A stretch of DNA of 55,056 nucleotides, the filler included, from Dimargaris cristalligena (Eukaryota), in the NCBI GenBank assembly GCA_003614675.1. It is 3 parts of 3 records of this genome, joined end to end, with 100 filler letters (N's around TTAATTAATTAA, not from the genome) between each part and the next. Parts side by side here need not be neighbours in the genome. Positions count along the whole stretch, not along the records: positions 36,798 to 55,056 come from ML002772.1; 2 more parts are not named here. One strand, 5' to 3'. Under the pieces are notes generated by a model. It searched no databases. It worked only from the letters and a program-made list of their open reading frames with translations, and was not told the DNA's origin. A program made the position numbers and the translations under genes. Shown here piece by piece: positions 18,312 to 55,056 of this stretch. Positions within the stretch are counted from its first letter, which is position 1, and each line of letters opens with the position of its first letter.

Positions 18312-18411
18312 NNNNNNNNNNNNNNNNNNNNNNNNNNNNNNNNNNNNNNNNNNNNTTAATTAATTAANNNNNNNNNNNNNNNNNNNNNNNNNNNNNNNNN
18401 NNNNNNNNNNN
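18312..18411. other. artificial contig spacer (N44-TTAATTAATTAA-N44)
   Basis: 100-nt block with a central six-frame-stop palindrome at 18356-18367. An identical block occurs at 36698-36797. Confidence 0.97.
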
Positions 18412-21000: not shown

Positions 21001-21576
21001 CGAAGTGCAATTATTCACTTACTCGACCATTTAACTAACCCCATCAACTAAAACCTATAGTAACCCTGCACTTTTCCGCCTCTTGAGGACTTTTGGGGCT
21101 GTTAACTACTTTGGTCGACCGGCTGTTCGCTTTAGCCAACACCCGTATAATTAATTATACCTGATGATCCAGCTCATCCCATTAGTAACACCCAAAAACC
21201 GATAATCGGGTACGGTGGGTTATGAGTGATACCCCAGGAACTATATAGCCCCTCAGTACCCTAAATATACAAGTAGCGTAAAATCTAAACAGAGCTGCTT
21301 AGTGTTTAGATTCCGCGACGTCCCAACCATAACTGTTGTTTATTTACCCTCTGCTCGAGCTGGCTGCACTTCTAGACCTCAGTTGGTTCTTTTCGTTAGA
21401 TATTTCTTTCCTGATTCCACTCATGCCCTTCAGACCATATTTAGTTGGCCATTCTTGCATTTCCGCCCGCTGTCCATTCGGCCTGTCCCGTTATTGACCA
21501 GTGTCTAAACTTACCAATCGCCGTGATCGACACGCCGGGGACGTGTTATCAGGCTGGGCGAACCCGCAATCCAACC

Positions 21577-24500: not shown

Positions 24501-24771
24501 GTTGGCGTGCGACTATAGTACTCAGCTGCGGCAAATACTGGCTACCTACCACGCCCACCGGCAATTGGCACTGGCCAACAACGATACGCGGGCCTTCCGT
24601 CGGGCCATGCGGGGCTATGGCCAAACGATTGTCCAAACCATGGACCCGTTTCTGCAGCAAGACCCGGCGGAGTTCACCCACGATACGTACGATTCAATGC
24701 TGAGAACGCGGTATGAAGTGCTGCAGGGACTCATGAAACCACTCCCTGTTGAACTCCGAATGGTCGATTAG
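21577..24771 (+). CDS. ELG1: Elg1/ATAD5, large subunit of the alternative RFC (PCNA unloader)
   Basis: WVEAYKP (RFC box), Walker A GPVGCGKT, ELNPGVRRSG, Walker B LIEEVD, SKRPIILTSN, GDIR. The frame is open from 21445 and the first ATG is at 21577; a further upstream exon cannot be excluded. Confidence 0.9.
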   Translation: MTCQDDLSRFLKQYGQNQTIQRNLTALLAKLSETSLNTNELSAIPISGDAPSLSTLPSDLRHCERLFQTPSTTALSPSQAALPWVEAYKPLKDSDICGNVPQVEYMVRWLEHWKLPGASDSTSATDAEASTVDETHVGFDRAQSAPSRVTDKSNPARPPVTRLPSLFRTEVSQSSSRSTKNKTADAGLPLTSDGFYRYSISDPIFDEDSSYTRLAAKGNDDEDFMSPRWKAVKRSNSTQRTGPSQKRSRSDNDTTGVAPPQSISEKCRPLRRSPREDITDPEFPLDPHLKASVAETPASPEGHLSNIILVLGPVGCGKTAAVYACAHQCNYKVLELNPGVRRSGKIVVQLLSEATQSHAVRGISASQSVMHQWARSVQAKHAAKPPPPKEAKPTSKSIKSFFKPAPQLPAPPPPLTSKPTRPSSPTQPAPANNTLARFWTAAPKEEPTGSQKAGPTQTKSKPANPPHPEAQPPKQVDPVDDAIILSDEEIPSPSWEKTDTDERAEGDVDDVAVETPCLTTLVDDSDSDGSTPSAVQTQPRQLLVLIEEVDIISESDRGFIGAIQAIARKSKRPIILTSNTMLSASTLQELGITKILNFEYPSPGALAAYLTLLTVREGGFEFTPATLHAVCRAYRGDIRHLLNQMEVYTRYRAKSSKANSDADCQTQLHAALARVRRYFGLLEPPLSTDSGTTKPYHLDARAFCQLLSFPSWPIPRPIVLSSRLDSEPTDDLSFVADFGPEGHCGGNFGDNQACKRGETSPFHRIALNYQSQLWPYLDASDSGCQSQPAPTLPALYDLLDRWPLQRNPTSESASARQTCQVLDGLADYYESLSSLDSTFGDATISQWRDLKLDNFDEGVYPEEREDAMQDRSLETEFNTTTAAYRACLGPLVAYRVTASSFAQDSEEETPPPPSLSADEMAFSAGLILSQTYPHASTNPNHTLFSAPMAAQGVPPIRAVLFFPITLGIINTSCQALACDYSTQLRQILATYHAHRQLALANNDTRAFRRAMRGYGQTIVQTMDPFLQQDPAEFTHDTYDSMLRTRYEVLQGLMKPLPVELRMVD

Positions 24772-25342: not shown

Positions 25343-27184
25343 ATGCTACACGAATTGGCCCTCACCACCTCAGGGTCTGCGCAGGACGATACCACCTACG
25401 CCTGGGATGTCCGTACAGGCACCATTCTGACCACATTCAAACAGAGCGGGTTCCTCGGGCATACTTTAGCCCCCTTCAAGGCCCCCGGGTACCCCCTCAG
25501 CTGCAGCGGCTTCATGGGTGCGATCCCCGGCCGACCCATGGTGCATTGTTATGTGTGGAATAAGGACCAGGCCTTTCTCAAATTCCCCTGCCCCGAGAAA
25601 CTGAGTGCCCTGGTGCTATCGTATTCGGGTCAATGGGCCGTGGGCGGTACTCCGACGGGTCGCCTATACCTATGGGAGACGTCTTCCGGCCAGCTTCTGC
25701 GGTACTGGGACGCCCACTACAAGGCCGTTACTACCATCCAGTTCGCGCGGGACGATACGTTCCTGATGACGGGGAGCGAGGATGCCGTGGTAAGCATGTG
25801 GGAACTCCCCGAAATACTAGAACCCTTGGGCTATGACCTCGACCCTAATCAGCCGATGGGACTCACCAAGCAGCCCCCGATGGATCAGGCTCCGTCGGCC
25901 CGGTACACCTGGACCGACCATACGCTGCCCGTCACCGCGGTCGTGTGTGGGTTCGGATTGGGCCCTTACACGCGTACCCTGACCGCGTCCCGGGATCGGA
26001 CCTGTAAACTGTGGGACCATACAACGGGCCATCTCCTGACCACGTTTGTGTTTCCCGTGGCCATTACCAGCATCGTACTGACATCGACCGAAACGGCTTT
26101 CTATGCTGGAGGGGCAGACGGATCGATTTGGCAAATTGATCTGTTCCGACGGGGCTCGCGTGATACGACCGGGGTGGCCAATCTATCGGATTTGGCGAAT
26201 ACTTGTGAGGCGGTCGGTGGTGAACAGCGGATTATTGATGTAGCCAGCGATAATCAACAAACCGCCCCGGATAGCGAATCGGCCTGGCCCGTTATGGTAG
26301 GCCACTCGGACGCGATCACCGGGCTTCAGCTTACCATGGATGGTACACTGTTGGTGTCGGCTAGCGCTGACGAACGGTGTATTGTGTGGGATGTATTTAG
26401 TCGGCAACAGCTTCGTACCTTTACCCAGCACAAAGGTAAGACCATGGTTTTTTTTTAGGATTAATTAAATGATCGATTGGTTTGAAACGAGACGTTTTTA
26501 GTAGGGTGACTTACTTAGCCTGACCAATTAATCAACTGAAAATTGGGGCTACTATCTTATCATGTATTTTTACTTATGTGTGTACATTCGCTAATCCACC
26601 TGCTGCTTCCGATTTTCCCCTCTCCATTTTTGAAACATATGACTATAGGCCCCGTATCTAACCTAGCCGTGCTCCTGCGACCACCCGAGTTGGTGGGGCT
26701 CAATATGGGGGCCTCCGCCCAGACCAGTCGGAGGGTGCCCTGTATCCAGCCATTCAAGCGTGTGATGCAGGATACCAGTCTAACGGCCACAATCACCAAC
26801 GAGCCCATCCCCCAGCCACCCAAAGACAATGGTGTCGAGACTCCCGCTACCACTGCCACCACTGCTCCTACGGCCGTAATCACCACTGGCCCTGTTACCC
26901 ACTTGGTGGATCGCCGGTCCGACCTCAAACGCCAGCTGGGCGCACTCGAGTTCGACGACCATTCATCCGTGGGACGGATCCTCGCCCAGGCCCACCACCG
27001 AGGCCTCAACAGCCAGTCCGGTGGGTCATCGGCCCAGGTTGGCCAGGAGATGGATAAGCTGAAGAAGGAGCTGGCAGGTAGTCGCGAACATATCGTCCGG
27101 CTACGTCAAATTAACCAGGACTTGCACAATTTCCACGTTGACTATTTTTTGGCCCAGCGAACGGACCCGACGACGGATGAATGA
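25343..27184 (+). CDS. IPI3: Pre-rRNA-processing WD40 protein Ipi3/WDR18 (Rix1 complex), 542 aa, 2 exons
   Basis: Exons 25343-26435 and 26649-27184 (GTAAGA..TAG, phase 1). Contains AWDVRTGT..TF, GRLYLWETSSGQLL..WDAHYKAVT, WTDHTLPVT, TASRDRTCKLWD, HKGPVSN and a C-terminal coiled coil (LRQINQDLH). Confidence 0.92.
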
Positions 27185-35085: not shown

Positions 35086-36644
35086 ATGCTTACGACTCAG
35101 CATCTCCAACACTACGTCAATGAGCACTTCCGCTCTGTGGCAGACCTGACCAAGCTCGATGAGCTCCTACCCATCGAGACTAAGCACACTACCCAGCTGC
35201 ATACTGAGGTAAGTACTACTTTAAAGCTATATGCACCAGCCTGGACCTGGACACGTTTTATCCACCGGCTTTCTCCAACCGCCCACAACCTATAACGAAC
35301 TTCATGAATGGGTGTTGGACCATGTACCCCCTTCAGTCACATTTCACTGTGTCCCTAACCGCTGACTATACTTTTCCGCCGTTACTATGGTACCACCATT
35401 ATGGCCGGCCCTATTATTATATTAGCTATGCGCGGTTCGTAAGAATACCGATACCCTCGTCCAAGAGCTAACCCAAGCCACCCGACAGTCTCAGGTTGAA
35501 ATCCAGCGATTGCGCAGCCTCCACGAGACCATTCGTCAAATAGCGGTGGCCTCCCCCGATACTAACCCTTTGTGGGCCGACCAGCTCCTACCGCGGCACC
35601 AACGGCTGCAGAGTTTATACACCGTCCAAGCTTACTTGAGCACGGTTGCCCGTGCCAATCAACTCGGCCAGCAGATTAAGGATGAAGCCAGCCGTAACCC
35701 CCAGCGGACAGTGGCCCTGTATCACCAGCTCCACGACATGGTATTCGCCTTACGAACCACTCCCAATCACCCACCCTACCCCAACTTGGACCAGTTCCTC
35801 GACGGTCACCTTGGCCAAGTGTGGGAGAGTATTCGGGCAACCCTGGTTAAACGCTACATTGAATGCCTGAATGCCTTGGAGTGGCCCAAGCCCATCAAAA
35901 TCCCTGCTCCCAAGTCCCTTGGCGCCAAGCTCGACGCCCTTCAACATGCATTCGCCGATATGCTACTCCTGGAACGGCCGCGGGGATCCACATCGTCCGC
36001 CACCCACAGTCCCGGGCCGGTCCTGTTCGCCATGCAGACCCTTACTCGGCCTCTGGTGGTTCGATTCCGCTATCATTTCGAGTCCCCCCGCCCGACTAAC
36101 CGTCTCGATAAACCCGAATGGTTTCTGTCCCACGTTGTAAATTCCATCCGGGACCACTACCCATTCCTAGAGGAAGAGCTGCAACCCGTGCTTGACCACT
36201 CCCGCAGCCACGAGTACCGGGTGAAGGACGAGTTTATCCGGGTGTGGGTGCAGTGTGTCGAGGAGAAATTACGCCAGGACCGGGGGCGCTACTTGGACGA
36301 GCCATTGCTTTTGGCCCATACCGTGCAGCAACTGGTAGAATTCGACCATACCTTAACTGAGGTATACTTTTACCAACCACCACCCCCCATCTTGCCCAAC
36401 GGGGAGACTGCACCCACGGACTGGGATCCGATGGACTGGCCCGGTACTGTTGATGTTTTACTGGCGGACCAGGACTTATTCGACCACTGGCTCAACGCCG
36501 AAAAGGAATTCGCTGCGGATCAGTACAATGAGCTGATCCTTGACGAAAATGCGTGGGCCCTCCTTTACGACGACCTACTAGACCCCAATGATCCTCACCC
36601 CACCCAGTCCGCCGAGGCTCTTTTTCAGCTGGTGGAGGGCATTG
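35086..36644 (+). CDS. TIP20: Tip20/RINT-1 (Dsl1/NRZ tethering complex), 3'-truncated at contig end
   Basis: Exon 1 35086-35208 (GTAAGT donor); exon 2 starts at 35426 (TTAG acceptor, phase 0). Family motif RFRYHF...TNRLDKPEWFL and LAHTVQQLVEFD. Sequence after ~36644 is a copy of the gene's own intron 1/exon 2 junction. Confidence 0.9.
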
Positions 36645-36692
36645 GTACCACCATTATGGCCGGCCCTATTATTATATTAGCTATGCGCGGTT
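36643..36692 (+). repeat. exact 50-bp direct copy of 35388-35437 at contig end (probable chimeric artefact)
   Basis: TGGTACCACCATTATGGCCGGCCCTATTATTATATTAGCTATGCGCGGTT is present at both positions. Confidence 0.9.
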
Positions 36693-36697
36693 AATCT

Positions 36698-36797
36698 NNN
36701 NNNNNNNNNNNNNNNNNNNNNNNNNNNNNNNNNNNNNNNNNTTAATTAATTAANNNNNNNNNNNNNNNNNNNNNNNNNNNNNNNNNNNNNNNNNNNN
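36698..36797. other. artificial contig spacer (N44-TTAATTAATTAA-N44)
   Basis: Same structure as 18312-18411. Confidence 0.97.
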
Positions 36798-39700
36798 CAT
36801 CCAGCTCGATACGGAACCCCCGCAGTTTCACCTGGCTGTCCATGCGCCCCAAACACACGACCTGTCCATCGGGTAGCCATCGGCCCAAATCGCCGGTTCG
36901 GTAGATTTTGCCACACCCCGTGAATGGATTGTTGACAAACTTATTTAAGTTAAGATCTGGTCGGTTGATATAGCCGAGGGTAACACCGACACCACCGATG
37001 CATATTTCGCCAACAGCACCAATCGGAACCACTAGCAGATTTTCATCCAAAATGTAACACTCATAGTCGGCCATTGGTCGACCGACTGGAATACACACGG
37101 ACAGCCGAACCTCCGTCAAAAGACAGGCGATTGTAGCTTCAGTTGGCCCATAAATATTGTAAAGGGTGGTAACCGCTGACCACTGACTTGCCAATTCTTG
37201 TGGTATATGTTCACCTCCTACCACCAGACTGGTCAGATTGGTATAATCCTGGGGATCTAACGTCGAGATGACAGACGGAAGCAAGATAGTCTGGTGTACG
37301 GTTTTCAACGTACCAGGGAGGTCGTCGCCATAGAACACCAGAGTGCAACCATAACATAAGGGAAGTAAGGTGTTCAGGAAAAACCCATCAAACCCAGCTG
37401 CCATTCCATTCATGGTTCGGGTACCGGGCTGTCGCAGCATCTCAAGGGTAGGGCTGCTGATAATATTTACAAGGCTGCGATATTCGACCATGACGCCCTT
37501 GGGGAGACCAGTGGAGCCCGACGTGAACACAATGTAGGCCAGGTCTGTTAGTTGAATGGAGTGGAGGGAGGATGCTGTGGCGGTAGATTCAATACCATCG
37601 ACAAGGTCGTCAATGGTAATGACTTCGCACCACTCGGTGTTCATTCCTGACGCATTCACCACACATGCGCAACCAGCCGTGTCGACAATGTATTTTTGAC
37701 GGGCAGTTGGGAGCTTAAAATCCACCGGTACATAGACGGCCCCGACGCCCCAAACGGCCAGCATGCACATGACTGTATCGGGGTGATTAGACACGATAAC
37801 ACCGACCTTTTCTTGTGGCTGAACATTGGCATGTTTGAGACGCTCAGCCATTCCCAAAACTCGCTGGGATAGCTGGGCGTAGGTGTGGGTGTAATCAGCA
37901 ATCTCAGTGGCCACTCGATCAGGGTACTTCTGAACCATATCAGAGAATAAATCCAATACACTTATGCAGGGATTCTCCTTTGTAAGTGGATTGGGGGACC
38001 CAAGTGCAAATTTATCCAGGATGAGACTGACCTCAGCTGGGCACACTAATGATGCCATGGTCCTTGACTGGTGAGCAACCATTACCGAGTGAGCATAGGC
38101 CAGGAAATTGTGAAGTAGACGGTTCACTGTGTCGACATTAAAAAGGCACGGATCGTATCTCAACTGGCACATAGTCGTATGGTCACAACAATCGACAACC
38201 AGCTGTAAATCGTAAGGGAACATTGTTCGAGGCGGCTGGGGCCTGGCGTACTGAACTGCAGAAATATCTCGAGATGCGGATGAATGGTGAATTACGACTG
38301 CTACACGGGGAAGACCGGAAATTCGGTGCTGACCTTCGAGAGACAAGTGCGGGACAAGAATATCCATTGGAGGCAAAACATGGAGCCGGGAGCCTCTGAT
38401 CTGGTGTGACAGTTGTTCGACTAATGCAAGGAAATCCAAGCGCAGTTCTCCCGTCACACGAAGAGGTTTTTCTGATATTGGCGGGCCTTCCAAAAAAACT
38501 GAACCATTTACAATTTCACCAACCGGTCCACTTACGGCCAAGATCAAATCGGTCTGTCCCGTCAGGCGTAGCAAGAATGTTGCAAAGAGAGTCGACCAGA
38601 GCCCATGTTCACCGAATGATTCCTTTGAAGCCCAATCATGAACAGTCTCAATCAACGAGTCTCCAACTGCGGTTTCTACCAAACTACAAAGGAACGAAGG
38701 CAAGAGCGGACGAGGCCGATCAGTCGGAAGAAGTAATTCTACTGGTGGATCCTGAAGAAGGGTGCCCCAGTAATCAATATCCACTTTAGATGGCTCACTT
38801 TCATTAAGGAAGCTCATAAGCGGGACATCGGATAGATCATTCGGAAGTCCAGCCAAGTTTTTGATGAACGCACGTAGAATGGCATCGAAGTCACCATCTG
38901 TTCCGAAGATTTCGTGAACGCAAATTACAATCGCCGAGGATTTGTCTACATTTGCACTAGCTGCTAGTCGATACCAGTCAAATTGGATCAGTACACCCCG
39001 GTTAATATCAAATCGAGGCGATTCTACTTCAAATTGATCTTGGTTAAGCTTCTGGGGACTGGGAAGTTGATGCTCAGTTACTCCAATTTTCACTGGTGGT
39101 AAGACGTAGCAGGCGAGAGCACCTTGAACAGAATGGAACCGGCAGCGAAGAGATTCAAATGTGGCAATTAGGTGGTCAACTGCCCGTTGAACCTCCACCA
39201 ATTGTAGCTGGGCCTTGATATTGATCACACGATGATAAAAGAAGACTGGTGCGGGATTACCCAATCGACTAAGGGACCAGGTGCGCTGCTGATGACCGGT
39301 GACCGACTTGGCACGTATATGCAGTGGCGAGGTTTTCGATGGGAAATTATCGATCACTTCAAGGTTGATATCTGGGGATGCCCCACTCACACCCCGGTCA
39401 ATTCTTCCACCAATAGTAGTAGCCAAGACCCCGATCTCACTATGTTTGATCAAATCATCCAAACTCAGATTGATACCGAATCTCTGGCAGATACGATACT
39501 GGAGCAGGTCAAGTTGAGCCAGCGGAAGCATTGCTGTGGACTTTAGATGTGCAGGATTAATGTTATCGGATGGATAGCAGTTGGAAGATACGTAAAGCTC
39601 ATTCACCACTACCATCAACCACCATTCAGAATCCGACAGGGACTGGACTGAGCGAATCGGAAGGCTGGCGAGATACGCCCGGGCGAAATACGGGAGAAGT

Positions 39701-41409
39701 TGGTCGTCAAGCTCGGCCGCGTGTGGGAATGCGCTGGTCGAAATGATCTCATCGGGCACGAGAACGGCTGGAATAGCGAGGGAAGTCATGGTGGACTCTA
39801 GACTAATTAATTCGGCCTCCTCGGCATTGGAAACCAGGGCCACTAGCTGGTCATCAGGTAAGACCAGGCATCGGGGAGATTGGGCACCGGCTTCCGTTAG
39901 TGCCCGAACCAGAGTACCGAGATGGAGCTGCCAGTGCTTAATAACCACTCGCTGTTCAGCTGGGCCTAGAATATGGACGAAATCAGCAGTATCCCGATAA
40001 CCAAGCACAGATTGCTTTAGCAGGCCAGTTTGTTTGGGGGACATGGTATCCAAGAGTACCAGTCGTCCAACCACTCCGGGGGGACAAGGGTGGTCATGGC
40101 CATCCAACACCTCTAAGAAGCAGCCGCTGGATGACCTATCTAGAACGGGCAGAGAACAAGAGACCAGTTGCTCTGGTGTAACACGGCGGTGGCCATGAAA
40201 GACGGATTCGATGAAAGTCAGGAAAATGTCAGTTGAATTGGCCAGACTTCTGACATGAGGCCAGGAGTTTTTATACGAGTCGATGAGAACTAGACGACCA
40301 CACTCTCCTGATTCGCAAGTTAGAGCATCGGCTGCCAAAACATGACAAGAAGTGGGTTTTTTATTACTCTGCACAATTGGACCGGGTGTCGAAACGGTTG
40401 CTTGGGATGTTAGGCAGGATAGAGCCAGCCAGGCGGTCTGGGGGCTGCCAAGGGCCAAGGAATGATCTATAATATATTGATATTTTCGGTCGATGAAGGG
40501 CCGAGTTGAGGCGAGGCTTCGCTGGATGTCCTGCTCAACAATAGCCAGCATGCTAAAGTCTGTCGATTGATTACGGGACGTGAACATCAAACTGAGTTCT
40601 AATTGGTCAGAAGACCGTTGGAATCGGCGAGTGGCTCGAACTTCACTGCTTCGTTGGTCAGCCGAGTCTGGAATACCGACCATAACAATGGTACAATCCA
40701 TGTAAGGACGTATCAGCTCGGTTTGATTGGACGGCAGCCATAACAGTTTTGCAGACATAGCTTTAGTATACGCCGATAGTTGCTCAATGTTATAGGGCGA
40801 TGCCAGAGGTAGGATTCGCGCCCCCAACTTGATGGCACTCACAAGGCAAATCAACAACTGCTCAACCTCGTCAACTACCGCCACGATTGCTGTGTTAGCC
40901 GTCTTGACGATTCGACTGGATTGGTGGGCAAGACTATCTGCCAATTGGTCGAGTTGCCCAAATGACAAGGTATGGGATGTTGAGACATATGCCGGGTGAT
41001 TAGCATGATCTAGCAAAGCAGTGTCCCAAGCCTGAGCTAAAGAAGGTGGGATAGTAGTATCAAAATTGGACGTCTGGATAGACTCAATGTGGCGGTGTGG
41101 TGCCGAATTATCGAGCATAAGTTGATTGATAGTGGTACCATCGACCGCTGATAGAATTTGGAGGAGAATGGACTGAATCATCTGGACAACACAAGCAATA
41201 GCCGTTTCAGAATAGGTGGATGCATTGTAGATGACCTTGGCCTGGATATCACTAGACTGGATAATAAAATCGATAGATAACAGGTATTCCGTACATTCGT
41301 GGGTTTGGAAATCGGACAGAATCAAGCTGTGTGAGGTATCAGGCGTGTAACCGGAGTAATTCTCGAACCCCAGAAGCGTCTGGAATAACGGCCCTGGTAT
41401 CCAATTGTG
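36798..41409 (-). CDS. NRPS fragment, partial at both ends: C(tail)-A*-T*-C*-A
   Basis: The frame continues upstream of the listed TTG into a C-domain tail (HNWIPGPLFQTLLGFENY). A degenerate A, T and C (LPTDRPRP, HEIFGTDG) follow. The last A domain is intact (LAYIVFTSGSTGLPKG, FDG, YGPTE, GEICIGG, YRTGD, QVKLRGFRIEL) and is cut by the contig end. Confidence 0.93.
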
Positions 41410-44400
41410 CCACTACTATCCCACTTTCTTTAGCTCAGGCTTGGGACACTGCTTTGCTAGATCATGCTAATCACCCGGCATATGTCTCAGAAGCCCATAC
41501 CCTGTCATTTGGGCAACTCGACCAATTGGCAGATAGTCTTGCCCACCAATCCAATCGAATCGTCAAGAAGGCTAGCCCAGCAATCGTGGCCGTAGTAGAC
41601 GGAGTGGAGCAATGGTTGATTTGCCTCGTTAGTGCCTTCAAGTTGGGGGCGCGACTTTTACCTCTGGCATCACCCTATAGCATCGAACAATTATTAGCAT
41701 GTTCTAAAGCCATATCAGCCAATATTGTGTGGCTACCATCGTCTCAAATCAAGCTACTAGGCACTTGTATTGATTGTACTGTAGATATAGTCGGTCTTCC
41801 AGACCCGGTTGGCTATCAAATCAGCGAAACTTGGGCTACTCACCAATCCACGTGGCCTCTTGACCAAATCGAACTTGGTTTGGCGTTTATATCCAACAGG
41901 CAATCATCGGACTTCGGCATGTGGGCGATTGACGAGCCGGAAATTCGGCGCACCCTTACCTTAACTCGGCCCTACATTAGCAGTGTGCGTCAGTATTCTC
42001 TGGACCATTCCTTGGCCCTTGACAGTCCCCAGACCGCCTGGTTGGTGTTATCCTGTCTAATGTCCCAAGCAACCATTTTGACACCCGGTCCATCTATGCA
42101 GGGGAATAGCAAAACTACCTCTTCTCATGTAGTGGCAGCCAATTCTCTAACTTGCGAATCAGGAGAGGGTAGCCGTCTGGTTCTCTGTGGCTTATATGAA
42201 AACGGCTGGCCTCATGTCAGAGGTTTGGTCAAGTCAACCGACATTTGCCTGACCTTTATCGACTCCATCTTCCATGGCCACCGTTGTATTACACCCGAGC
42301 AGCTGGCTGCATGCTCTCTACCTGTTGTAGATAAACTTTTCAGCGGCTATATCTTAGAGGTGTTAGATGACCATGGTCACCCCTGTCCCCCCGGAGTCGT
42401 TGGACGGTTGTCACTCTTGGACACCCTGAACTCCAATCAAACTAGACCGCTAAAGCAACCTGCGCTTGGTTACCGAGATACAGCCGACATGGTCCATATT
42501 TTGGGCCCGGCTGAACAGCGAGTGATTATTAGGCACCAGCAGGTCCATTTCGGAACACTGGTTCGGAAACTAACTGAGGTCGGTGCCCAATCTTCCCGAC
42601 ACTTAGTCTTGCCTGATGGACAGCTGGTCGTGCTGGTTTCCAATGTCGCCGAGGTGGAGTTGATTAGACTCAAGTCCATTATGGTCCCGCCTGTCATTCC
42701 ATCCGCTCTCGTGCCCGATGAGATCATTTCGACCAGTGCATTCCCCCACGTGACCGATCTTAATGACCAACTTCTCCCACACTTTGCCAAAGCATATCTA
42801 ACCGCACGTCCAGCCTATTCAGACCAGTCCTTATCAGAATATGAATGGTGGCTGATAGTGGTGGTGAATGAACTTTACGCATCTTCCAACCATTCTTCCG
42901 TTGGTAACATTGATACCGCACCTCTAATGTCCACATCAAGGATTCCACTGGCCCATCTGGACCTACTTCAGTACCGCATTCGCCAGAAATTCGGTGTTGC
43001 CGTTGGTTTGGGCGAGTTTATTAAACACACCGAGATTCGTACTTTGGCTTCTATCGTCGAGAGATTTATTAATCAAGGCACAGATGAGCAGTCTCCTGAT
43101 TTCACCATCGAAGATGCCGTTATCGCCCCTCTGGACATGTCACCTCTGTATAATCGTGCAATATCAGTCACTAGTCATCAACAACGAGTCTGGTCCCTCA
43201 GTCGGTTGAGCAATCCTTCATCAGCTTTTTACCACCACTGTACGATAACTTCCAAGGCCCCACTTCAGTTGGTGGAGGTCCAGTGGACTATCGATCACCT
43301 AACTACCGTATTTGAATCCCTTCGTTATCGGTTTCTATCAGTCCGGGGTGTACTAACATGCCATGTTTTACCACGAGTGTCAATTGGAGTAACTGAGCAC
43401 CAACTTCCCAGCTCTCAAGTATTCGATGGCGACCAGTTCGACGTACATGTACCTCAATTTGATTTGAATCGATGTGAGCTGGTTCAAATCGACTTGTATC
43501 AGCTTCCGATGGACACAGCCTACAACAAATCTTCGGTGATTGGAATTCGTGTCCATGAAATCCTCGGACCCACCAACGAATTTGATGAAATTGTGCGTAC
43601 GCTCACTAATCAATTGGTTGGACATTCACCCAGATTACCCAATGTCCAATTCATGAAAACTTGCAGTACTAGTGAGCCTACTAAAGCAGACCTCAACTAT
43701 TGGAGCACTCTTCTACAGAATCCACCGGCTGAACTGGCTCTCCCGACCGACCAGCCTCGCCCCCTTGTGCCCACTTTCCTCTGTAATGTGGCCGAAACCG
43801 GAGTTGAGCAGCAATTTCTTGACACTGTTCAGGAGCAGACTTCGAAAGAGTCGGTTAAGGAACACGGAATCTGGTCATCTCTATTTGCGACATTCTTGTT
43901 GCGCCTGACGGGGCAAACTGATTTGATTATGGACTTAAGTGGTCCATTTATCGAGAATGGTGATACTTCGGTTGGTATGAAAGCCCTGTCGGTACTGGCA
44001 CAACCTCTCCGAGTAAAGGGGGAACCATCGTTAGATTTCCCCGAAATAGTCGGACAATTGGCCCACCAGATCGTAGACTCTCAGCTCCACCCTTTGCCTT
44101 TAATGGACACTCTTGCCCCCCACTTGTCTCTCGAAGGCCAACACAGAATTTCCGGCCTGTCTCGTATATCAGTTTCATACCACCACCCGGCCGGACCCGG
44201 TGGCAATTCTACTGCAGTCCGCTGTGTCAGGCCCCGATTGCCCCGAACGATGTTCCCTTATGATTTACAACTGGTTGTTGACTGCCATGACCATACACCT
44301 ATATGTCAATTGAGATTTAACCAGAGTCTCTTCAACGTTGACACGGCGAACCGCCTACTTCATAATTTCATGGCCTATGCACATTCGGTTGTAGTCGCTC

Positions 44401-45675
44401 ACCAGCGGTGGTCTACGGCATCACTGATATGTCCAACTGAGGCCAACCTCATCCGGGACAAGTTCACACTCGGGCCTCCTAATTCGGTTACGCGGGAAAA
44501 CCCTCACCTAAGCGTTCTAGACTTATTCTTGGATATGGTCCAAAAATACCCCAATCGAGTAGCCACTGAAATTGCCAATGTTACCTACACCTACGCCCAG
44601 CTATCCCGAAGAATCTTCGTACTGGTCGAGCGTCTCCAACGTGCTAATGTACAACCATGCGACAAGGTGGGTGTTATCGTAACCAATCACCCAGATGCGG
44701 TCATGTGCATTCTAGCCGTTTGGGGCGTCGGGGCCGTCTATGTACCGGTGGATTTCAAGCTCCCAACTGCCCGTCAAAAGTATATTGTCGACACGGCTGG
44801 TTGCACATGTATCGTGAATGCATCAGGAACAAGCACAGAATGGAACGAAGCCATCTTCATTGACGGCCTTAGCGATGACATCGAATCTACCACCACAGCA
44901 TCCTCCCTCCACCCCATTCAACCAACAGACCTGGCCTACATTGTGTTCACTTCGGGATCCACCGGTCTCCCCAAGGGTGTCATTATCGAACATCGCAGCC
45001 TTTTAAATATGCTTACCAGTCCCACCCTCGAGATGCTGCAGCAGCCCGGTACCCGAACCATGAATGGCATGGCAGCTGGGTTTGACGGCTTTTTCCTGAA
45101 CACCTTGCTTCCCCTATGCTACGGTTCTACCTTGGTTTTCTATGGTGACGATCTTCCAGGCACATTGAAGACAGTGCAACAGACTATTCTGCTTCCGTCC
45201 ATCATCTCTACCCTGAATCCCCACGACTATACCAACTTGAATAGCTTGCTGGTCGGTGGTGAACATTTACCTCGAGAATTAGCGAGTCAGTGGTCAACGG
45301 TGACCACTTTTTACAATATCTACGGGCCGACCGAAGCCACAATCATATGCCTTATGATTGAAGTACCATCCTCCGGATGTGTTCCAATCGGCCGACCAAT
45401 GGCCGATTACGAGTGTTACATTTTGGATGAAAACCTGCTAGTGGTTCCAATTGGTGCCGTCGGTGAGATTTGTATTGGTGGTGTTGGGGTTGCCCTCGGC
45501 TATATCAATCGACCGGATCTTAATCCGATTAAGTTCGTTGACAATCCCTTCACTAAGCATGGTAAAATCTACCGAACCGGTGATCTGGGCCGTTGGCTGC
45601 CCGATGGACAGGTCATGTGTTTGGGGCGCAAGGACAGCCAGGTGAAACTGCGGGGGTTCCGTATCGAGCTGGATG
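36798..45675. repeat. diverged inverted repeat: 36798-41070 versus 41400-45675 (two NRPS paralog segments), ~330 bp spacer
   Basis: Colinear protein alignment over the whole length. Perfectly identical patches are 40981-41044/41426-41489 (64 bp) and 36798-36841/45632-45675 (44 bp). Confidence 0.92.
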
Positions 45676-48600
45676 AGATTCGCAGCGTTTTGATGCGCCA
45701 GCCCTGGGTCCAGGACTGTGTCGTGTTCGTCCACGACCAATTCTTAGTCAGCTACGTATTTTCGGATTCTACTGCCAGTGAGAATACTCTTCGTTCTTCC
45801 GTCGCGGACCAGCTACCGTCTTATATGGTTCCCAGTTATATCATTGGCCTTCCGAAAGTTCCTCTGACCACCAATGGCAAGTGCGACACCCAGTTTCTCC
45901 GGACTCACTTTGCTGACCATTTGGCCACACAGCGGCAGCAAGTCCCGCTTGTTGACAGTGGGTCTGAAGAAGATGAACCATTAACTGTCCTAATTCAGGC
46001 ATTGTGTGAGGTGCTTGGTCTATCGCCTAGCCAAGTTAATCCTAACTTAACTTTTATCAAAATTGGGGGAGACTCCATTTCAGCCATTCAGGTCTCATCC
46101 AAGTGCCGCCAATTTGGGTTTTCCCTACCCACCTCCGGCCTACTGGGATCCCGGCCCTTATGCGATGCCTCCAAGGAAATGTCTCATATTTTACCTTCCA
46201 GTGGCAAAGCCAGCCAATTCCATCACGTAGAATACCACACAAAATTCCCGCTTACCCCGATCCAACAGTGGTTCTTTGACCACCCCTGGTCCAACCCAAA
46301 TCATTTTAATATGTCGTTTGCCCTGGAATTGACTCGACCATTAACTATCGCTGAGCTCACCCCAGCCTTGCTCCGTTTGATAAACTGCCATGATATGCTG
46401 CGCTGTCAATTCACCCAGGTCCCGCATGGTCTTCCAGGCCAGTGGTCCCAAGAAATTATACCACCTTTCGCCGAATTGCCCATTCCAATTGTAGAGTTTG
46501 GCGTATCACCCTCTAGTCTGCCGGAAAAACTTATATCAATCCAGGCATCGCTTGACATCACCCAAGGCCACCATTTGGCTGCGGGTCTCATCACCATTTC
46601 GGATGGCGATAGTAACACGCCGGTGTCTAACGGATCTCGTTTGACCAGCATCTCTCCTCCATTTAAAAGGCAGTTACTATTCCTGACCATCCACCATCTT
46701 GTAGTGGATTTGGTATCCTGGTCGATTCTACTCGAGGACTTGGCTCACATTTTAGACGGTCAGTCACCAGCGCCGCAGCCCTTGGAATTTGCCACCTGGG
46801 CAACGGAGTTAGTAGACTGGGCCAAGCTAGATATGTCTAATGCCAATCCGAGCCATCCGCAAGCGACTCCACAGTCGTCGTTTTTGCCCCTCGCTGGACC
46901 GGACTGCCTGGCTTTGAACACCCAAGCAAACACTCTATGCCAATCGGTCACACTCGATTCTGCTCTGTCAGACGCCATTCTGCATATTGACACTGGGGGT
47001 ATCCGGCCTCTAGATCTGATGCTCACTGGTCTGTTCCAGGCCCTACACTTTATTTCGCAGGCCCCGACCATTACCATCTTCAATGAATCTCACGGCCGTC
47101 ATCCGTGGCAGTCCAATATTGATCCCAGTCGAACCGTTAGTTGGTTCACTTCTATATTTCCCTGCCGGGCGCAAGTAGATGCTGGTACAACGCTCTTAGA
47201 TTACCTCAAACAAGCCAAGCAGGCACTTCGCTCATCAAGCGGGACTCAGGGGCTGAAACCCGGCCTTCAACAGCTATTGCACCGTCCGCAAAACACAACG
47301 TCTGATGAACAGCCTTATTCGCCGATGGACGTCTGCTTCAACTACCTGGGCCACACAACAAGTAACGGGACGTTATCCATGCACGGTCGAGCTCCCTGGA
47401 CCCCTCTCCCAGAATTGACGACCACCTTGGCCATCTGTGACCCGTCTGAACTTCGTGCACAGATACTTGAGGTGATTGGTCTGCCAACTCCCGGTGGATT
47501 AACATTCATGATTTACTACTGTCCCCAGGTCATCCCAACAGGCGTTATTGAATCTCTTTTGGACCATCTTCGACAGTCTCTGGTGGATATCGTACAGTGC
47601 CTCGATCAGTCGCATCATCCTTCTCTCTGGACTCCGTCGGATTTCCCCAGTCTGAACACCACCCTCTCCGAATTGGCCAAACTGGAGGCTGAGCTTTCCA
47701 CCGTTGGACTTTCCCCGCACGATGTCGAGGATCTCTACCCCATGCTACCCATGCAGCAAGGTTTGTGGACGGCTACTGCCAAGGATCCCACTAAATACCT
47801 GGTCCAATTTGTCTTTACTGTAACGGGGATTTCAGATCAAACCCAACTTGAAATAGCCACCCGGGCCATGGTTGCCGATAATACTATTCTACGTACAGTA
47901 TTCTTGACCACCTGGAGCAATTCTCGATGTGACGGCGTCCAGATAATCCCCCGGACCCCGCGTTTTGATTGGCATGTCCTCCATGAGTGGGCAGATATGG
48001 GTGCTTCCAGTGAAGACGATTTCCTACAGTCAAATCGGGCGCGAGGGTTTGCACTTGATGGGCCGCTCCTTCGGGTCTATGTCATGCAGCTCTCACCTAG
48101 CTCGTTCCGTTACCTTTTAACTGTTCACCACGCCCTGGTCGATGGCTGGTCGGGTAGTCTTATGATTCAACAACTCCGTAGCCGCCTTCAAAATGAATCC
48201 CCGGCCCATGTTAATGATGCCCTATCATTTTGCGACTACGCTGGGTATTACTTGAACACATATAATCCCGAAGCCGAACCATTCTGGCGTGGCTATCTTC
48301 AGGGAGTTGATAATCCCACCGACCTAGAACTCCCCAAACCCTCCGACATATCGAAACCAAGTAAGGCCGAGTTTCACTTCACCCTGTTCTCGGATTATGA
48401 CCGAGTTCAGCGAGTTGCCCGGCATTTAGGATACACCCCCTATACACTTATCAAAACCGCTTGGGCCATCCTCCTGAAACGCTACACCGGTCAGGCTGAT
48501 ATCATATATGGCATTACGGTGTCTGGTCGAACCCTTCCTTTAGCCGGCATCGATTCTCTTCTGGGGTGCCTCATTAACACCGTACCTTTTCGAGTCCAGT

Positions 48601-51600
48601 TTGATTCAGATTTGGCCGTGTCACAGCTTGTTTCGTCCATCAATGACACCACCCAACAGATGGCTCCGTTTGAACACTACCACCTATCAAATATAAATGG
48701 GTGGGTAGATGGCGAGGTCCGCCCCAGCGACACGTTCAATACTTTAATGGTGTTCGAGAACTACCCCGATACCGGGTTGGGCGATTTAAGTCATCCGATC
48801 ACTTTTACGGAAAACAAGACGGTTGAATCCGCTGAGTACCCCATGGCTGTCATTGCTCGAGTAGATCATGATGAAATTACTGCGTGTCTGAATTGGGATG
48901 CATCCCAGTTTGGTCAGTGCTACGTCGAAACCCTGTCCCAGCATTTCTGTACATTATTTGATGGGCTAGTCTGTGCCCTTGCTGATTCGGAAAAACACAG
49001 CCTCGTCGACGATCTTCCGATGCTATCCGCCAATGATATCGTCTTGGTCACTGAGCAATTTGCCCGTCCAACTCTGGCCATCGATTTCGATGCCTGTGTG
49101 CCTAGCCTATTTGCTGATACTGCCAAGGCCACTCCTGATACCGTTGCAATTGAGTACAAAGAAATGCAATGGACCTACAGAGAGTTGTATAACCAAACGA
49201 TTAACTTGACTCACCGACTGCAACATTATGGCGTTCAGCATGAGGCGCCAGTCGGCCTTCTAATCGACCGGTTACCCAGTACTGTCGCAGCTTTTCTGGG
49301 TGTCCTCCAAGCCGGAGCTGCCTTTGTGCCTCTCGATCCCGCCTTTCCCGTCGACCGAATCAACTACATAGTGGAAGACTGCGGTATCAAACTTGTACTT
49401 ACAAATACAGCCGACCAAACCAAACTAGATTCTATTCGACTGGCCCTTGTAGGTGTTGACTTCCATAGTATCGATAAGTGGCTCCTCCCCCTCCGGTTAC
49501 CCTCAGACCAACTATCCCCCTTACCCCAGATTAGGCCCACGGATTTGTCACATATCCTTTACACGTCAGGCACCACAGGCCGACCCAAGGGTGTCCAACT
49601 CGAGCATCGTCTGATGGCCAATTTTGTTCAACAGGCCGAGTCGACGGTTTGCATCACTCGTGGATTAAGACTGATGCAGAATATGGCACTGACCTTTGAC
49701 GGAGCCCTGATTGAGATCTTCACCGGCTTGTGCAAAGGCAGTACCATAGTCATACGCACGGATATTCTGGACACGCTTCCCTTGGTGGAGGCCTTGGTGA
49801 CCACACCCACTGTACTCGCTTCCTTGGATCCATCCAAGTACCCCAAGTTAAAGAAGGTCATTTCAGGGGGAGAGGCCCTTCCGCGTCAAGTGGCCGAACT
49901 CTGGGCAAACCACTGCCGCGTGTTCAATATGTACGGCCCCACCGAATGTCTTCTCTCGCATACCATTGAATACAAAATTGGAAATGTACCTACCGTTGGA
50001 AGACCAATTCCCAACACTGAGGCCTATATCCTTGACCAAAATCTGCGACCTGTTCCCATTGGGGTCCGGGGGGAAATCTGTATTGCAGGTATCCAGGTTA
50101 CCCGAGGTTATGTCAACTTGCCGGAACTTAACCGTGAACGATTATTGCCCAATCCCTTTACTGACAAGGGTCTCCTCTATCGTACAGGCGACAATGGTCG
50201 CTGGTTGATTGATGGCACTGTCGAGTATTTTTCTCGACATGATGACCAGGTAAAAATTCGTGGCCACCGGGTGGAACCGCAGGAGATTGAGACGGTCCTA
50301 CTCAGCCATCCCGACGTGAAGAGCACCGCCGTTGTCATCGCCAGTCGAAAAATTTACGCATTTATTTGCCCTGGTTCAGTATCCGTCGAGTCCGTTAAGT
50401 CTCACATTGGTCGGATTCTACCCGCCTATATGAACCCTAACGCCATATTTAAAATTGATGAACTACCCCGCAACACCAATGGCAAGACCGACAAGCATGT
50501 CTTGAATGCAAAAATCGCCGAATTAACCTCAATGGATATTGGCCGTGCCATTACTGCCCCGCAGAATCCAATGCAGGCCCTGGCCATTGAGGCCCTTAGC
50601 CAGACCTTGGACGTTCCCTGTAGCGAAATTGACATTTATGACTCATTTTTCCAACACGGCGGTGACTCGATTTCTGCTATTCGCCTATCCTCCCTCTGCC
50701 GAGACCGTGGCCTATATATCACCATTGCCCAGGTGTTCAAGTGTAGTAATATTGTCGAGTTGGCCGAGTGTGCCTCTGATCACTCGAAATCCGACGGACC
50801 ATTGGAACGCCATAGCTCTACCCACTACACACCCTATAGTCTACTTGGCGAAGTGGGCGCACCTTCCTTCGTTACGGACTCCCTCCTGCAAGAGGCCACT
50901 TCCCAACTTAAATTAGGCTTGGATGAAGTCACCGATATTCTGCCGGTTTCAGGGCTCCAATTGGGCTTTCTTGTGAATACCCTGAAAGACCCAAGTTCGT
51001 ATATGGTGCAGGAGTCTTTCACCATTTCTGGAGATTTGGACTTGGATCGCCTCCAGAACGCGTGGCACCGGTTGGCTGAGTACCATGACATCCTAAGAAC
51101 GAAATTCTTCCAACCCGCATCTCTGCCAAACCACTCCTTCCTCCAGGTTATCACAAAATGGTGTGACATTGAATGGTCAATCCATACAGATGTGGCTGAC
51201 GACTGGTCTGCCTTGGAAAAAACATACTTTGCAACCGACCGCCAACGTGGTTTTACTTTTGAAGGGCCGTTATTACGGATAGCGCTTTTCACCTCACCTT
51301 CCACTGATATTTACCGGCACCTGTGTTTCTTTACCTTCCACCATGCCCTACTCGATGCCTGGTCCTGGAATATCGTTTTGGCCGAACTGGTTGACCTATA
51401 CCACGGTACCGAACCTACTCCCACAACACAGTTTAGTAACTATATTTCATATCTTCAAAACGCCGACCAATTCCAGCTCCAGCAGTACTGGCAGACGGCC
51501 CTAGTGAATGCCCGACCTACCCCCTCGATCCACTTCCCCGTTTACGCAACTCAATCTCCAGTATGCAAATATGGCGTACACCGTAACACACTGTCATCCA

Positions 51601-54600
51601 ATTTGGCCAGCCTGCACGCATTCTGCCGCCAGCAACGTATCACGCTCAATTCCCTCCTGCGGGGTGTTTGGGCCCTCACTCTGTCTCGCTACCTGGGCGT
51701 GTCTGACGACATTTCCTTCGGTGTGCTCACCTCTGGTCGCAATGTCCCCGTATCAGATATCCAGAATATGGTGGGCATGTGTATCAATACTCTGCCATTC
51801 CGAGTGTCACTGGACCTACAGACCACCATTTCTAGTTTCGTTCAGCGTGTACACTGTCAATCCGGTGAACTGACAGTGTCTGAGCAGTGCGGTCTTCTTG
51901 ACATCTACAAATTGGGGAAAATCAGCCGCGAAACCAAACTCTTTAATTCCCTGATGTTGTACGATAACTTCCCGCCTTCCGCATCTGGTACGCCTAACCC
52001 CGATATCACCTTCAAACTGCATGGTGGGCAAAACTTTACTGAATATGCTTACACTGTTAGTTTTTTGGACAATGGGGACAATCTCGACTGCCGCGTCGTT
52101 TATGACGAGACACACTGCGATGCCACTTATGCCAACTACTTGGTTCAATATATTGACCATTGTCTATTCGTGATGGTAAATGACCCGTGCCTGAGTTTGG
52201 GTGATCTCATGACCCTACCAACTGACGAGGCCCGGCTCGTCGATAAATGGGCTCAGGGGCCTGTTCGCGAGTTCCCTCAGCGACATTGGCTGGCTTACCA
52301 GCTGTTCAGCCAACACGTTTCCTCCAGGCCGGAGGCCATCGCCCTCGAAACTGCCAGTCAGCAATTCACCTACTCAGAGACGTACCATCGGTCGTGTTGC
52401 ATTGCACTGGCCCTTCAACAACGCGGATTCAAACCCGGCAATCTTGCCGCCCTAGTCTTCACCAAATTGGCCGATTTTATATTCAGTTACTTAGGTGTTC
52501 TTTTGGTCGGCGGTGTGTGTGTCCCAATGGATGCCACTAATGCTGCTGACCGCCTGCAATACACCTATGGACTGTTGGACGACCCTTGGCTCCTGTCCAC
52601 CGCCTACCATTTCGACAATATCCGGGATCATGTTTCCGTGGTAGAAGATCGGTGTTGCCTTGTCGACATTCTAGACCACAGCGGGGTACCCACCAACTTG
52701 TTCCGACCCGACACCTCTCGCTCTTCTTCGGACTTGGCATACATCATGTTCACGTCTGGAACCACCGGTCGACCCAAGGGTATCCCTGTGCGACATGAGT
52801 CGCTCGTCAACTTTACTCTATCTAACTGTGAGACCGTCCAGCTTGACTCTAACTGTCGCTTCCTACAGCTTCTGAATACTTCCTTTGACGGCTGCCTACT
52901 GGAAATATTTGGTGCTTTCCATTGTGGCGGTACATTGGTACTCCAGGATGGAAATCTTCCCGAAACCTTAGCGCGGGTCAATACCTGCTTCCTCATTCCA
53001 TCTATGCTTTCAGTCATTGATATCGAAGCTTATCCCAATCTGAAAACAGTATTCATTGGTGGTGAACTTGTTCCGCTCAATGTCGCCCATAGATGGTGCG
53101 AGCGTGTTCGCCTATTCAATATTTATGGCCCAACTGAGATTACAATCGTGTGCCACGCAGAACGAGTCCGTAGCAGCGAGCCACTCTCCATTGGCCGTTC
53201 ACTAGCCAACATCCAAGGGTATATCCTTGATGATCAGCTCCGACCTGTCCCTGTAGGTGTACCCGGCGAACTCTGTATTGGCGGGGTTGGTGTCAGTTCG
53301 GGTTATTGGAAGCAGCCCGAACTCACCGTTAACTCATTTGTCCCAAATCCGTTCGGCCGCGGTTACCTATATAGGTCGGGTGATCTCGTCTGCTGGCTAT
53401 CCAGTGGCAAGGTCCAGTTCATTTCTCGAAAAGACTCCCAGGTCAAACTGCGTGGCTATCGTATCGAACTAAGCGAAATCGAAAACACTGCCTCTTTAGT
53501 GGAGGGCGTTACAAACGCTGTGGCCTGCGTGACCCAGCAGCAACTCGTTCTCTACATAGCCCCCAGTTCAGTTGATATTGTAGCCCTCCAGACCCAAATT
53601 ATCTCTAAACTCCCGCAGTATATGGTGCCCAATTTCATTGTACCACTGGACTGTATCCCCATGACCAACGTGGGTAAGGCCGATCGCAAGGCACTTCAGG
53701 TTCGTCCACTGCCAATGGACACCACAGACGAAGCGGTTGATATTGATTCCTTATCTTCGACATTCCTACTTATGAGAGAAGCCTTGGCTGACACCCTCAA
53801 GGTTGATCCCAAACGGGCCACGCCATCGGCCTCGTTCCTCCGACTAGGTGGCGACTCTATTTCGGCCATCCAGTTTTCCAACCGCTGTAAACGACTAGGC
53901 CTCCAACTATCGGTGGCTGATATCCTCAAACACACCCAACTATCGGTCATGGAACAATATGTACATTTGGCGGATTCAGAAAATACGGCACGTATTCAAT
54001 ATATGGAACCCATTGGGTCAATTCCATTGACCGCTGTGCAGCGGTACGCCCTGGAGGAATACCAGTTTATCAACCAATTCAACCAGTCCATGCTTCTCAA
54101 GTGCCGACAGACTTTGACCCGCCCCATGTTGAGACAAGCCCTCACCAACCTGATGGCCCACCATGATATCCTTCGAATCCGACTTGAACACTCCAACGGC
54201 CAATGGCAGCAGCGGGCGCTGCCCATACCCATCGACATGACCTCTTGTCTAAGCCGGTTCGTATTCATTGAAGAAGCCACGGTTACCCTCGACCAATACC
54301 CCGCTTGGGTTAATAACATGCAGCGGACCATTTCAATTGAGCATGGCCCCACCGTGGCTTGTGGTTTGTTGACTCTGGATAGTGAGCAATACGTTTACAT
54401 GACCATCCACCATTTTGCAGTCGACTTCGTCTCCTGGCGGATTATTCTCGAAGACCTGGAGGCCCTGCTCACAAACCAGAGTATGCCTGCCAAGACAATG
54501 CCGTTCCGGGAGTGGGCTACTCAGGTCCACGCCTATGCACAGACTCTGTCCGACACAACCTGGCCGGTGACTTCCACTCCAGCCGATCCTATTCCACTGG

Positions 54601-55056
54601 ATTATCCACTTTCGTCTACGAGCGATCAAAGCGCTCCTCTCGCAATAACCTACCATTCGTTCGAAGTCCAGCGGGCATCATTAGGACTTGCTCTGTCAGA
54701 CACCCTATATACCGACGTTGCCCCTACCGTAGGGGCCTCGCCTCAAGAATTCCTGATAGCTTCACTTTTGCTCTCTCTACAAGCGAATTTTGGAGTCTCG
54801 GTAATTGAATTGGAACTAGAGGGACATGGTCGTCGGACGTGGGACTCTGCTATTGACATCAGTCGTACGGTAGGCTGGTTTACCTCCATCTACCCTGTTG
54901 TTTTTGATCTGAAACAGTCGCAGGCCCACTCGACCAATAGTTTTAATATTCGAACGTTGGCCCTAGCGAAGCAGCGAATGCGTTCGATTCCTGATCACGG
55001 CTTCCCCTATAGTCTTAAGCGCTACCTCAAGGGCACTCTTCCTATTTCCATGGAAA
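41400..55056 (+). CDS. Multimodular NRPS, partial at both ends, >4,550 codons, intronless: A*-T*-C*-A1-T1-E1-C-A2-T2-C-A3-T3-E2
   Basis: Translated by hand with no stop codon to the window end; it is absent from the ORF track. Approximate domains: A* 41400-42800; T* 42830-43070; C* 43160-44420; A1 44520-45900 (FTSGSTGLPKG, TNGK); T1 GGDSI ~46070; E1 46250-47620 (PIQQWF, HHLVVDLVSW, ESHGR, FNYLG); C 47720-49000 (HHALVDG); A2 49090-50500; T2 GGDSI ~50660; C 50930-52200 (HHALLDA); A3 52290-53700; T3 GGDSI ~53850; E2 from 54020 (HHFAVDFVSW, EGHGR, RTVGWFT). Confidence 0.96.

Follow-up and report, generated by a model that had tools for sequence, protein, structure and literature searches.

A degenerate A-T-C unit in nonribosomal peptide synthetases of Dimargaris cristalligena and its relatives, probably the relic of a skipped module

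Dimargaris is a mould parasite. According to passages of Ahrendt et al. (2018; PMC6784888), D. cristalligena has 27 nonribosomal peptide synthetase (NRPS) genes, which fall into two lineage-specific expansions with "modular synteny" and stand mostly alone on short contigs. We analyzed a stretch of 55,056 nucleotides from this genome (assembly GCA_003614675.1), called the window below, whose third piece (36798-55056, 18259 bases) holds two NRPS copies, copy A on the plus strand and copy B on the minus strand. Each copy contains in frame an adenylation-carrier-condensation (A-T-C) unit of about 1000 residues in which the catalytic motifs of all three domains are gone. We refer to it as the ghost unit and to its domains as A*, T*, and C*. 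How can a synthetase build a peptide across such a unit, and why has the unit been kept? We favor, with a probability of roughly 60%, the reading that it is an ancient relic of an A-T-C elongation module, permanently skipped and under moderate selection to stay folded.

Passages of the literature on nonribosomal peptides of D. cristalligena give NRPS counts and expansions and leave degenerate modules unmentioned; the supplement of Ahrendt et al. (2018) may list the genes. The passages on NRPSs of the Dimargaritales name no product. Among papers on inactive or vestigial NRPS modules, judged by titles and abstract openings, none dealt with a conserved dead NRPS module.

Loss of catalytic motifs and selection on the ghost unit

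The ghost unit was confirmed in position and content, with A*-T*-C* at 41400-44405 on the plus strand and 41070-38068 on the minus strand. A self-comparison by BLASTN returned a single inverted match (41400-45675 against 41070-36798) with 75.5% nucleotide identity over 4298 columns, and TBLASTN of copy A against copy B gave 67.5% amino acid identity over 1425 residues. The Pfam AMP-binding score of A* lies above the cut-off of 29.9 bits in copy A and below it in copy B, far under that of the adjoining live A domain, and the Condensation score of C* exceeds its cut-off of 30.6 bits in both copies (Table 1). The PP-binding model found nothing in T* of copy A and only an insignificant match in copy B. 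In profile-profile alignment with hhalign, A*-T* was collinear with 13 active A-T didomains (probability 98.9%, 527 columns, 16% identity), and C* aligned with nine active C domains (probability 96.4%, 381 columns). A family-specific profile of the 13 active didomains detected two of four ghosts, at 27.1 and 19.6 bits, compared with 876-966 bits for active domains. In a sequence search of the PDB, C* matched seven sequences including the Txo2 and Txo1 C domains (best E 1.6e-09), and A* and T* had no match.

The core motifs of A domains include A3 (the P-loop), A5 (GPTE), A7 (YRTGD), A8, and the A10 lysine. The profile-profile alignments place ISNRQSSDFG or TSRNQSTDFS at the P-loop TSGSTGxPKG, KSTD at GPTE, GYRDT at YRTGD, and GPAEQRV(I/V)I at GRxDxQVKxRG, and the A10 lysine is missing in both A* copies. 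In T*, aligned to the T domain, GGDS has become (I/L)PLA(H/Q) with His or Ala at the serine position. In C*, HHxxxDG has become HEILGPT or HEIFGTD. Every substitution named in the original prediction was thus mapped to its motif position, and its description of an A-T-C unit with dead chemistry holds, since all three domains are recognizable homologues and the catalytic residues are gone.

The two ghost copies differ at 829 of 3003 aligned bases (27.6%), with 238, 209, and 382 differences at the first, second, and third codon positions. Neither contains a stop, and in 1426 codons there are only two single-codon insertions or deletions. Neutral simulations with half of the difference load per lineage produced 12-13 stops on average, and 0 of 2000 runs were free of stops. 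The Nei-Gojobori ratio of nonsynonymous to synonymous substitution rates (dN/dS), calculated for the single pair of copies inside the window, with dS uneven between domains (0.5 in A*, 1.2 in C*), was 0.40 for A* (bootstrap 0.31-0.53), 0.28 for T*, 0.23 for C* (0.15-0.31), and 0.315 for the whole ghost unit (0.26-0.38). For the adjacent active A domain it was 0.14 (0.105-0.20). Both ghost copies are therefore under purifying selection, 2-3 times more relaxed than that on the active A domain, and the value near 1 that simple decay would give was not observed. Because dN/dS is well under 1, stops are absent, and insertions or deletions are few, the substitution pattern indicates that the ghost unit is probably translated and constrained. 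The absence of stops and frameshifts as such is to be expected, since either would cut off the active modules further along the same open reading frame (ORF).

Identity between the copies is uneven at the beginning of the unit. The first 50 codons of A* (41400-41550 against 41070-40920) are 95% identical in nucleotides and 98% at third positions, compared with about 72% for the whole ghost unit, which suggests a recent gene-conversion tract spanning the tail of a C domain and the start of A*.

The ghost unit is not limited to the window. In a search with residues 24-1030, paralogs from D. cristalligena matched at 35-70% identity; all other matches were to bacterial NRPSs of a generic kind, at 19-29%. 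An A*-T* profile matched 67 proteins among 1.84 billion representatives and added two D. cristalligena loci, several proteins of Tieghemiomyces parasiticus, and proteins of D. verticillata (P0130) and Dispira parvispora (P0131). The 1007-residue unit had no match at E <= 1e-10 among proteins of 553-1763 residues. The unit is thus present in further D. cristalligena genes and in three other species, and it was also recovered in reads of two independent studies and in a second D. cristalligena assembly. The two paralogs of the original prediction are both real and distinct from all other matches, but they are merely two of at least eight D. cristalligena loci with the unit.

For comparison we used 17 units, from eight D. 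cristalligena loci, D. verticillata, T. parasiticus, Dispira parvispora, and one further protein. The P-loop is absent from all 13 units that cover it, the A10 lysine from 17 of 17, and GGxS from 17 of 17, with D. verticillata retaining GG followed by AL. All 16 units that cover the C motif have another residue in place of its second histidine: Glu or Asp in D. cristalligena, Pro in D. verticillata and Dispira, and Gln in Tieghemiomyces and P0149. Regular-expression scans found no P-loop, GG[DHN]S, or HHxxxD inside any listed ghost interval; the ghost stretches 1226-1484 and 1545-1824 of P0135, taken from the profile alignment, have no motif position inside them. Judged as an active ANL-superfamily adenylation domain, A* has the homology and fold and lacks the core motifs. 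C* likewise has the homology and fold of a condensation domain and lacks the second histidine of HHxxxDG, and for T* the GG(D/H)S motif of an active carrier domain is found in 0 of 17 units. Several non-catalytic blocks (CPPGVxGRL, LGYRD, FPH, EWWL, HQQRVW, and YWxTLL) are kept across genera. In five comparisons holding the downstream module, three of them across genera, the ghost domains were 22-47% identical to those of copy A, the following A domain 44-60%, and the following T domain 35-64%.

Three relatives carry a shortened ghost. In P0194, P0135, and P0149, which are two Tieghemiomyces paralogs and one further protein, the N-terminal core of A* (ghost-profile positions 1-364) is lost, and the remaining unit starts at the A8 hinge region straight after the linker of the preceding C domain, C2, as seen in the regions P0194 1230-1420, P0135 1132-1320, and P0149 1640-1830. 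Exactly the A* core is gone and the A* subdomain, T*, and C* are retained. The unit is therefore not needed in full, and the pattern suggests that reduction proceeds by whole folding units.

AlphaFold was run on the 1007-residue unit. With six sequences the mean predicted local distance difference test score (pLDDT) was 37.7 and the model was not used; with 17 sequences the pLDDT was 71.9 and the predicted template modeling score 0.57, and 688 of the 1007 residues scored a pLDDT of at least 70. The model has the A-PCP-C fold (PCP, peptidyl carrier protein) with T* as a helical bundle. The top Foldseek matches in the PDB were LgrA A-PCP-C constructs (E 2.6e-38, about 1100 columns), followed by a DhbF cross-module fragment, PCP-C didomains, and PheA (1amu, target template modeling (TM) score 0.62). 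For C*, the matches included the C domain of SrfA-C (target TM 0.68) and the X domain of teicoplanin synthetase (4tx2, target TM 0.65; 4tx3 was also matched). The ghost sequence is still compatible with all three folds, as far as predicted folding goes.

Probable whole-module skipping and its alternatives

We read the domain order from motif positions in the proteins carrying the ghost unit. Ten proteins have A-T-E-C before the ghost (E, epimerization domain) and three have (A)-T-C. An intact C domain of the HHxxxDGW type lies immediately upstream in all 15 proteins with upstream sequence. After the ghost, an A domain with a P-loop follows in 13 of 17 units and a T domain is the next motif in two; in the other two the protein ends before any further motif. 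The longest model, P0006 with 7380 residues, contains five A domains with a P-loop in addition to the ghost. As an intact C domain sits upstream, it would have to work across the ghost, in agreement with the original prediction. A siderophore-synthetase architecture was rejected on the presence of E domains and a different domain order.

In the reading we favor, an ancestor of the Dimargaritales NRPS expansion would have lost the adenylation, carrier, and condensation chemistry of one module. The assembly line would then be A1-T1-(E1)-C2, the ghost A*-T*-C*, and A-T and further domains, with C2 intact and T* presumably unable to carry a phosphopantetheine arm. Given these two properties, C2 most likely acts on the next live carrier: it would condense the donor bound to T1 onto the amino acid on the first live carrier past the ghost, which amounts to whole-module skipping via the upstream C domain. 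This would be the only skipping route left for the ghost module, because relay through the skipped T domain is impossible if T* cannot be loaded. The ghost would be translated, with its frame maintained by the active modules behind it in the ORF, and the need to stay folded as a compact A-PCP-C body within the megasynthase would account for the moderate purifying selection. Selection for such a body agrees with the amino acid constraint, with the conservation of length, and with loss of the A* core along domain borders. We infer from the gene sequences both the skipping and the identity of the acting C domain, as well as the reason for retention. Altogether, these NRPSs probably build their peptide across an inert insert of about 1000 residues.

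Several points weigh against this reading. The skipping is read from gene sequences and would require C2 to serve a carrier that lies about 1550 residues further on, a reach not known from this NRPS family. The dN/dS values come from one pair with a gene-conversion tract at its start and with dS of 1.2-1.9 in some segments. Gene models of several paralogs omit stretches of the ghost, and frameshifts may hide in those loci. In addition, length and sequence are kept over several genera and at least 17 genes, which exceeds what ORF maintenance needs and leaves room for a positive function.

In one alternative, the ghost has acquired a new use, as a non-catalytic pseudo-module that this NRPS clade needs. 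It may be a rigid strut that places the downstream carrier at the acceptor site of C2, an oligomerization surface, or a recruitment platform for trans-acting enzymes; it might also fix the geometry of two C-A platforms so that one C domain reaches a carrier about 1500 residues away, or mediate megasynthase assembly. The C-like X domain, for instance, serves as a recruitment platform for P450s, and C* has a structural match to the X domain of teicoplanin synthetase. The purifying selection, which acts on A*, T*, and C* alike, the blocks conserved across genera outside the catalytic motifs, the confident predicted fold, and the retention of the A* subdomain, T*, and C* even where the A* core is deleted would all suit a pseudo-module. 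However, selection is weaker than on the active A domain, the A* core is dispensable in three relatives, and the contigs carry NRPS sequence with no partner gene visible. The replacements at the catalytic sites also vary by genus (His to Glu, Asp, Pro, or Gln) with no new shared motif there. We therefore regard this alternative as possible but rather unlikely. Of the spacer, docking, or gating role in the original prediction, the purifying selection stands and conservation extends beyond two copies, while a positive role is not established in view of the relaxed selection and the dispensable A* core. If such a role were true, the pseudo-module would stand to NRPS modules as pseudokinases do to kinases.

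A second alternative is that the ghost marks a functional split. Module 1 and C2 would form a unit of their own in which C2 passes the first residue to a free acceptor, and a new line would begin at the A domain past the ghost, C* being the vestige of a starter C domain. The combination of an E domain and then an intact C domain is the usual setting for chain elongation with a D-configured donor, which argues against a restart. In favor of a split, T* presumably cannot hand anything on, and paralog N-termini also start with what looks, by eye, like a partial C-like stretch. Truncated, inactive N-terminal C domains are known in fungal NRPSs, for example PlmA C1 in passages of PMC10549243. On the other hand, both halves are fused in one ORF in every gene, and 13 of 13 proteins with the N-terminal part have A1-T1-(E1)-C2 before the ghost, which makes the split improbable.

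It is very unlikely that at least one ghost domain keeps a non-canonical chemistry, with T* modified at a nearby serine, C* active with glutamate, or A* binding a ligand without adenylation. A serine does lie 2-5 positions ahead of the aligned carrier site (STSRIP; SSPV in Tieghemiomyces), C* retains 51-63 bits to the Condensation model, and the second histidine of HHxxxDG is not strictly essential in every C domain. But the GGxS context occurs in none of the 17 units, the residue at the second-histidine position varies between genera with the motif aspartate also lost in most units, the P-loop and the A10 lysine are both gone, and the active A-T profile separates ghosts from active domains by hundreds of bits. 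Finally, plain decay into pseudogene fragments or a meaningless assembly chimera, to which the probably artefactual head-to-head junction in the window and the public gene models omitting parts of A* might point, is contradicted by the low dN/dS, the lack of stops, the bias of differences to third codon positions, and the recovery of the unit from independent reads, a second assembly of the species, and three other species.

Arrangement of the two copies in the window

Copy A lies within an ORF at 41331-55055. Copy B lies within an ORF ending at 41325, and its reading frame is open from 41412 down to the contig end. In the published contig the two copies stand head to head, and this inverted layout is probably an assembly artefact. 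Contigs were derived from reads of four runs in two studies, and those of every run contained the joint "41084 / 41389, opposite strands". The joint contig is at single-copy depth (189.8 in X4, with 55 letters on the shorter side) and consists of the reverse complement of 41085-41139 followed by 41390 onward, which puts a C-domain tail (...HRHIE) in frame ahead of ALVSNCATTIP... of copy A. A variant contig, V (41050A, 41089A, 41090C, 41108C; depth 192.6), is the sole contig at 41050, and the depth at 41089-41108 equals V plus the joint contig. From this depth bookkeeping at 41050 against 41089-41108, the joint contig covers 41085-41139 and not 41050. Variant V is copy B continuing into its own, slightly different C-domain tail. 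The depth in the interior of the spacer (at 41188) is 1.6-2.5 times that of a single copy. It is quite likely that both genes have a C domain upstream of A*, with a near-identical shared stretch through which the published contig folded back.

Copy A is not the start of a protein: the first ATG in its ORF is only at about residue 197, and the read-derived contigs place the C-domain tail in frame upstream. The public model of copy A is P0003 (BJ085DRAFT_35539, D. cristalligena), 100% identical to the plus-strand ORF; it begins at an internal Met (ORF residue about 197), and compared with window 41331-44420 about 100 A* residues are spliced out. Several public gene models of paralogs also omit stretches of A* or C*. 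Because public models splice away parts of it, the ghost unit is partly hidden in protein databases.

The window itself consists of three contigs glued end to end with joiners of the form N44-TTAATTAATTAA-N44 (four runs of 44 N in all), which are linkers with stops in six frames, and the gene neighborhood across them is meaningless. The remaining ORFs of the window are of eukaryotic kind (HLH, WD40, Sfi1, RINT1/TIP1), and on this gene content the possibility that the window came from a bacterium was rejected. An ORF of the RINT1/TIP1 family at 35510-36694 (+) matches only profile positions 2-188 of 514 and halts where the second contig ends; its truncation is due to the contig end and not to the NRPS. 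A large ORF with a weak AAA ATPase match at 21445-24771 (+) is followed by a WD40-repeat ORF at 25343-26458 (+), and the two may be a single gene of the NACHT/AAA-WD40 type with an intron.

Table 1. Coordinates of the ghost domains, adjoining NRPS regions, and joiners in the window
Feature	Position	Strand	Basis
A* of copy A, degenerate adenylation domain, ORF residues 24-498	41400..42824	+	Pfam AMP-binding 32.4 bits; hhalign; motif table
T* of copy A, carrier-like without the GGxS serine, residues 499-579	42825..43067	+	no PP-binding match; aligned to T domain
C* of copy A, condensation-like with HE in place of HH, residues 615-1025	43173..44405	+	Pfam Condensation 63.4 bits; hhalign; Txo2/Txo1
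Active downstream modules of copy A	44508..55055	+	motif positions; Pfam AMP-binding 238.7 bits (adjoining live A); ORF runs off contig end
Live domains of copy A, first stretch: A (P-loop residue 1207), T (1579), E (1788), C (2266)			
Live domains of copy A, later: A (2745), T (3110), C (3337), A (3808), T (4173), E (4360)			
A* of copy B	39646..41070	-	Pfam AMP-binding 24.6 bits; codon alignment to copy A
T* of copy B	39403..39645	-	PP-binding 12.8 bits, E 0.14, C-terminal helices only
C* of copy B	38068..39297	-	Pfam Condensation 51.5 bits
Live A domain of copy B; contig ends at its motif A8	36799..37965	-	Pfam AMP-binding 227.8 bits; P-loop copy-B residue 1297
C-terminal tail of upstream C domain and C-A linker, as the window shows them; interior is collapsed two-copy sequence	41071..41412	-	open frame; resembles paralog C2 tails
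Artificial contig joiner N44-TTAATTAATTAA-N44	36698..36797	.	N runs read in window
Second artificial joiner N44-TTAATTAATTAA-N44	18312..18411	.	N runs read in window

Known systems and the meaning of a dead module

Module skipping has been described in other synthetases. Work of Wenzel et al. from 2006 is said to have found a skipped module in the myxochromide S synthetase caused by loss of the carrier serine, and Degenkolb et al. reportedly described module skipping in Trichoderma peptaibol synthetases in 2012. As in those systems, a whole module would add no residue and the chain would be passed across it, which for the ghost is judged from genes. Unlike in myxochromide S, the ghost is dead in all three domains and not in the carrier only, and unlike in either system its state is old and fixed, common to several genera and at least 17 genes.

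Passages of Bushley et al. (2008; PMC2644324) describe degenerate A (dA) domains of ferrichrome-type siderophore synthetases, in module 2 of S. pombe Sib1 and as A3 of O. olearius Fso1. The T and C domains of these dA modules are used, and the proposal is that a different A domain charges the T domain in cis. A* resembles these dA domains as a fungal A domain that lacks several core motifs and lies in frame inside a synthetase. However, a dA module of this type has functional T and C domains; T* has no serine and C* has no catalytic histidine, so rescue by another A domain would not work here.

The first module of PlmJ (penilumamide), in passages of PMC10549243, is proposed to be skipped since the line has one module too many for its product. 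[quoted passage not shown] In this fungal NRPS, A1 adenylates in vitro, T1 keeps its serine, and C1 keeps its catalytic histidine. The skipped PlmJ module thus looks alive but unused, whereas the ghost is visibly dead and would leave the upstream-C route as the only possible one. The X domain of glycopeptide NRPSs, as passages of PMC11546977 present it, is a C fold with a mutated active-site motif, a non-catalytic purpose, and P450 partners. C* is likewise a C-fold domain with a mutated active-site motif, but the X domain is single and terminal, placed before the TE domain with P450 partners, while C* is internal and accompanied by a dead A and a dead T domain on a contig that holds NRPS only. 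None of the compared precedents combines loss of function in all three domains with fixation across genera.

Isolated dead domains and the occasional skipped module were already known; a whole dead A-T-C at a fixed position is a different case. The ghost unit is fixed in at least 17 genes from four named species and three genera (Dimargaris, Tieghemiomyces, and Dispira), under purifying selection. It offers a natural experiment on the distance that is tolerated between a condensation domain and its acceptor carrier and on the duties left to inert parts of a megasynthase. These questions are relevant to NRPS engineering, in the choice of module cut sites, tolerated spacers, and the prediction from a gene of how long its product is. 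Module counting in genome mining would make the predicted products of these synthetases one residue too long.

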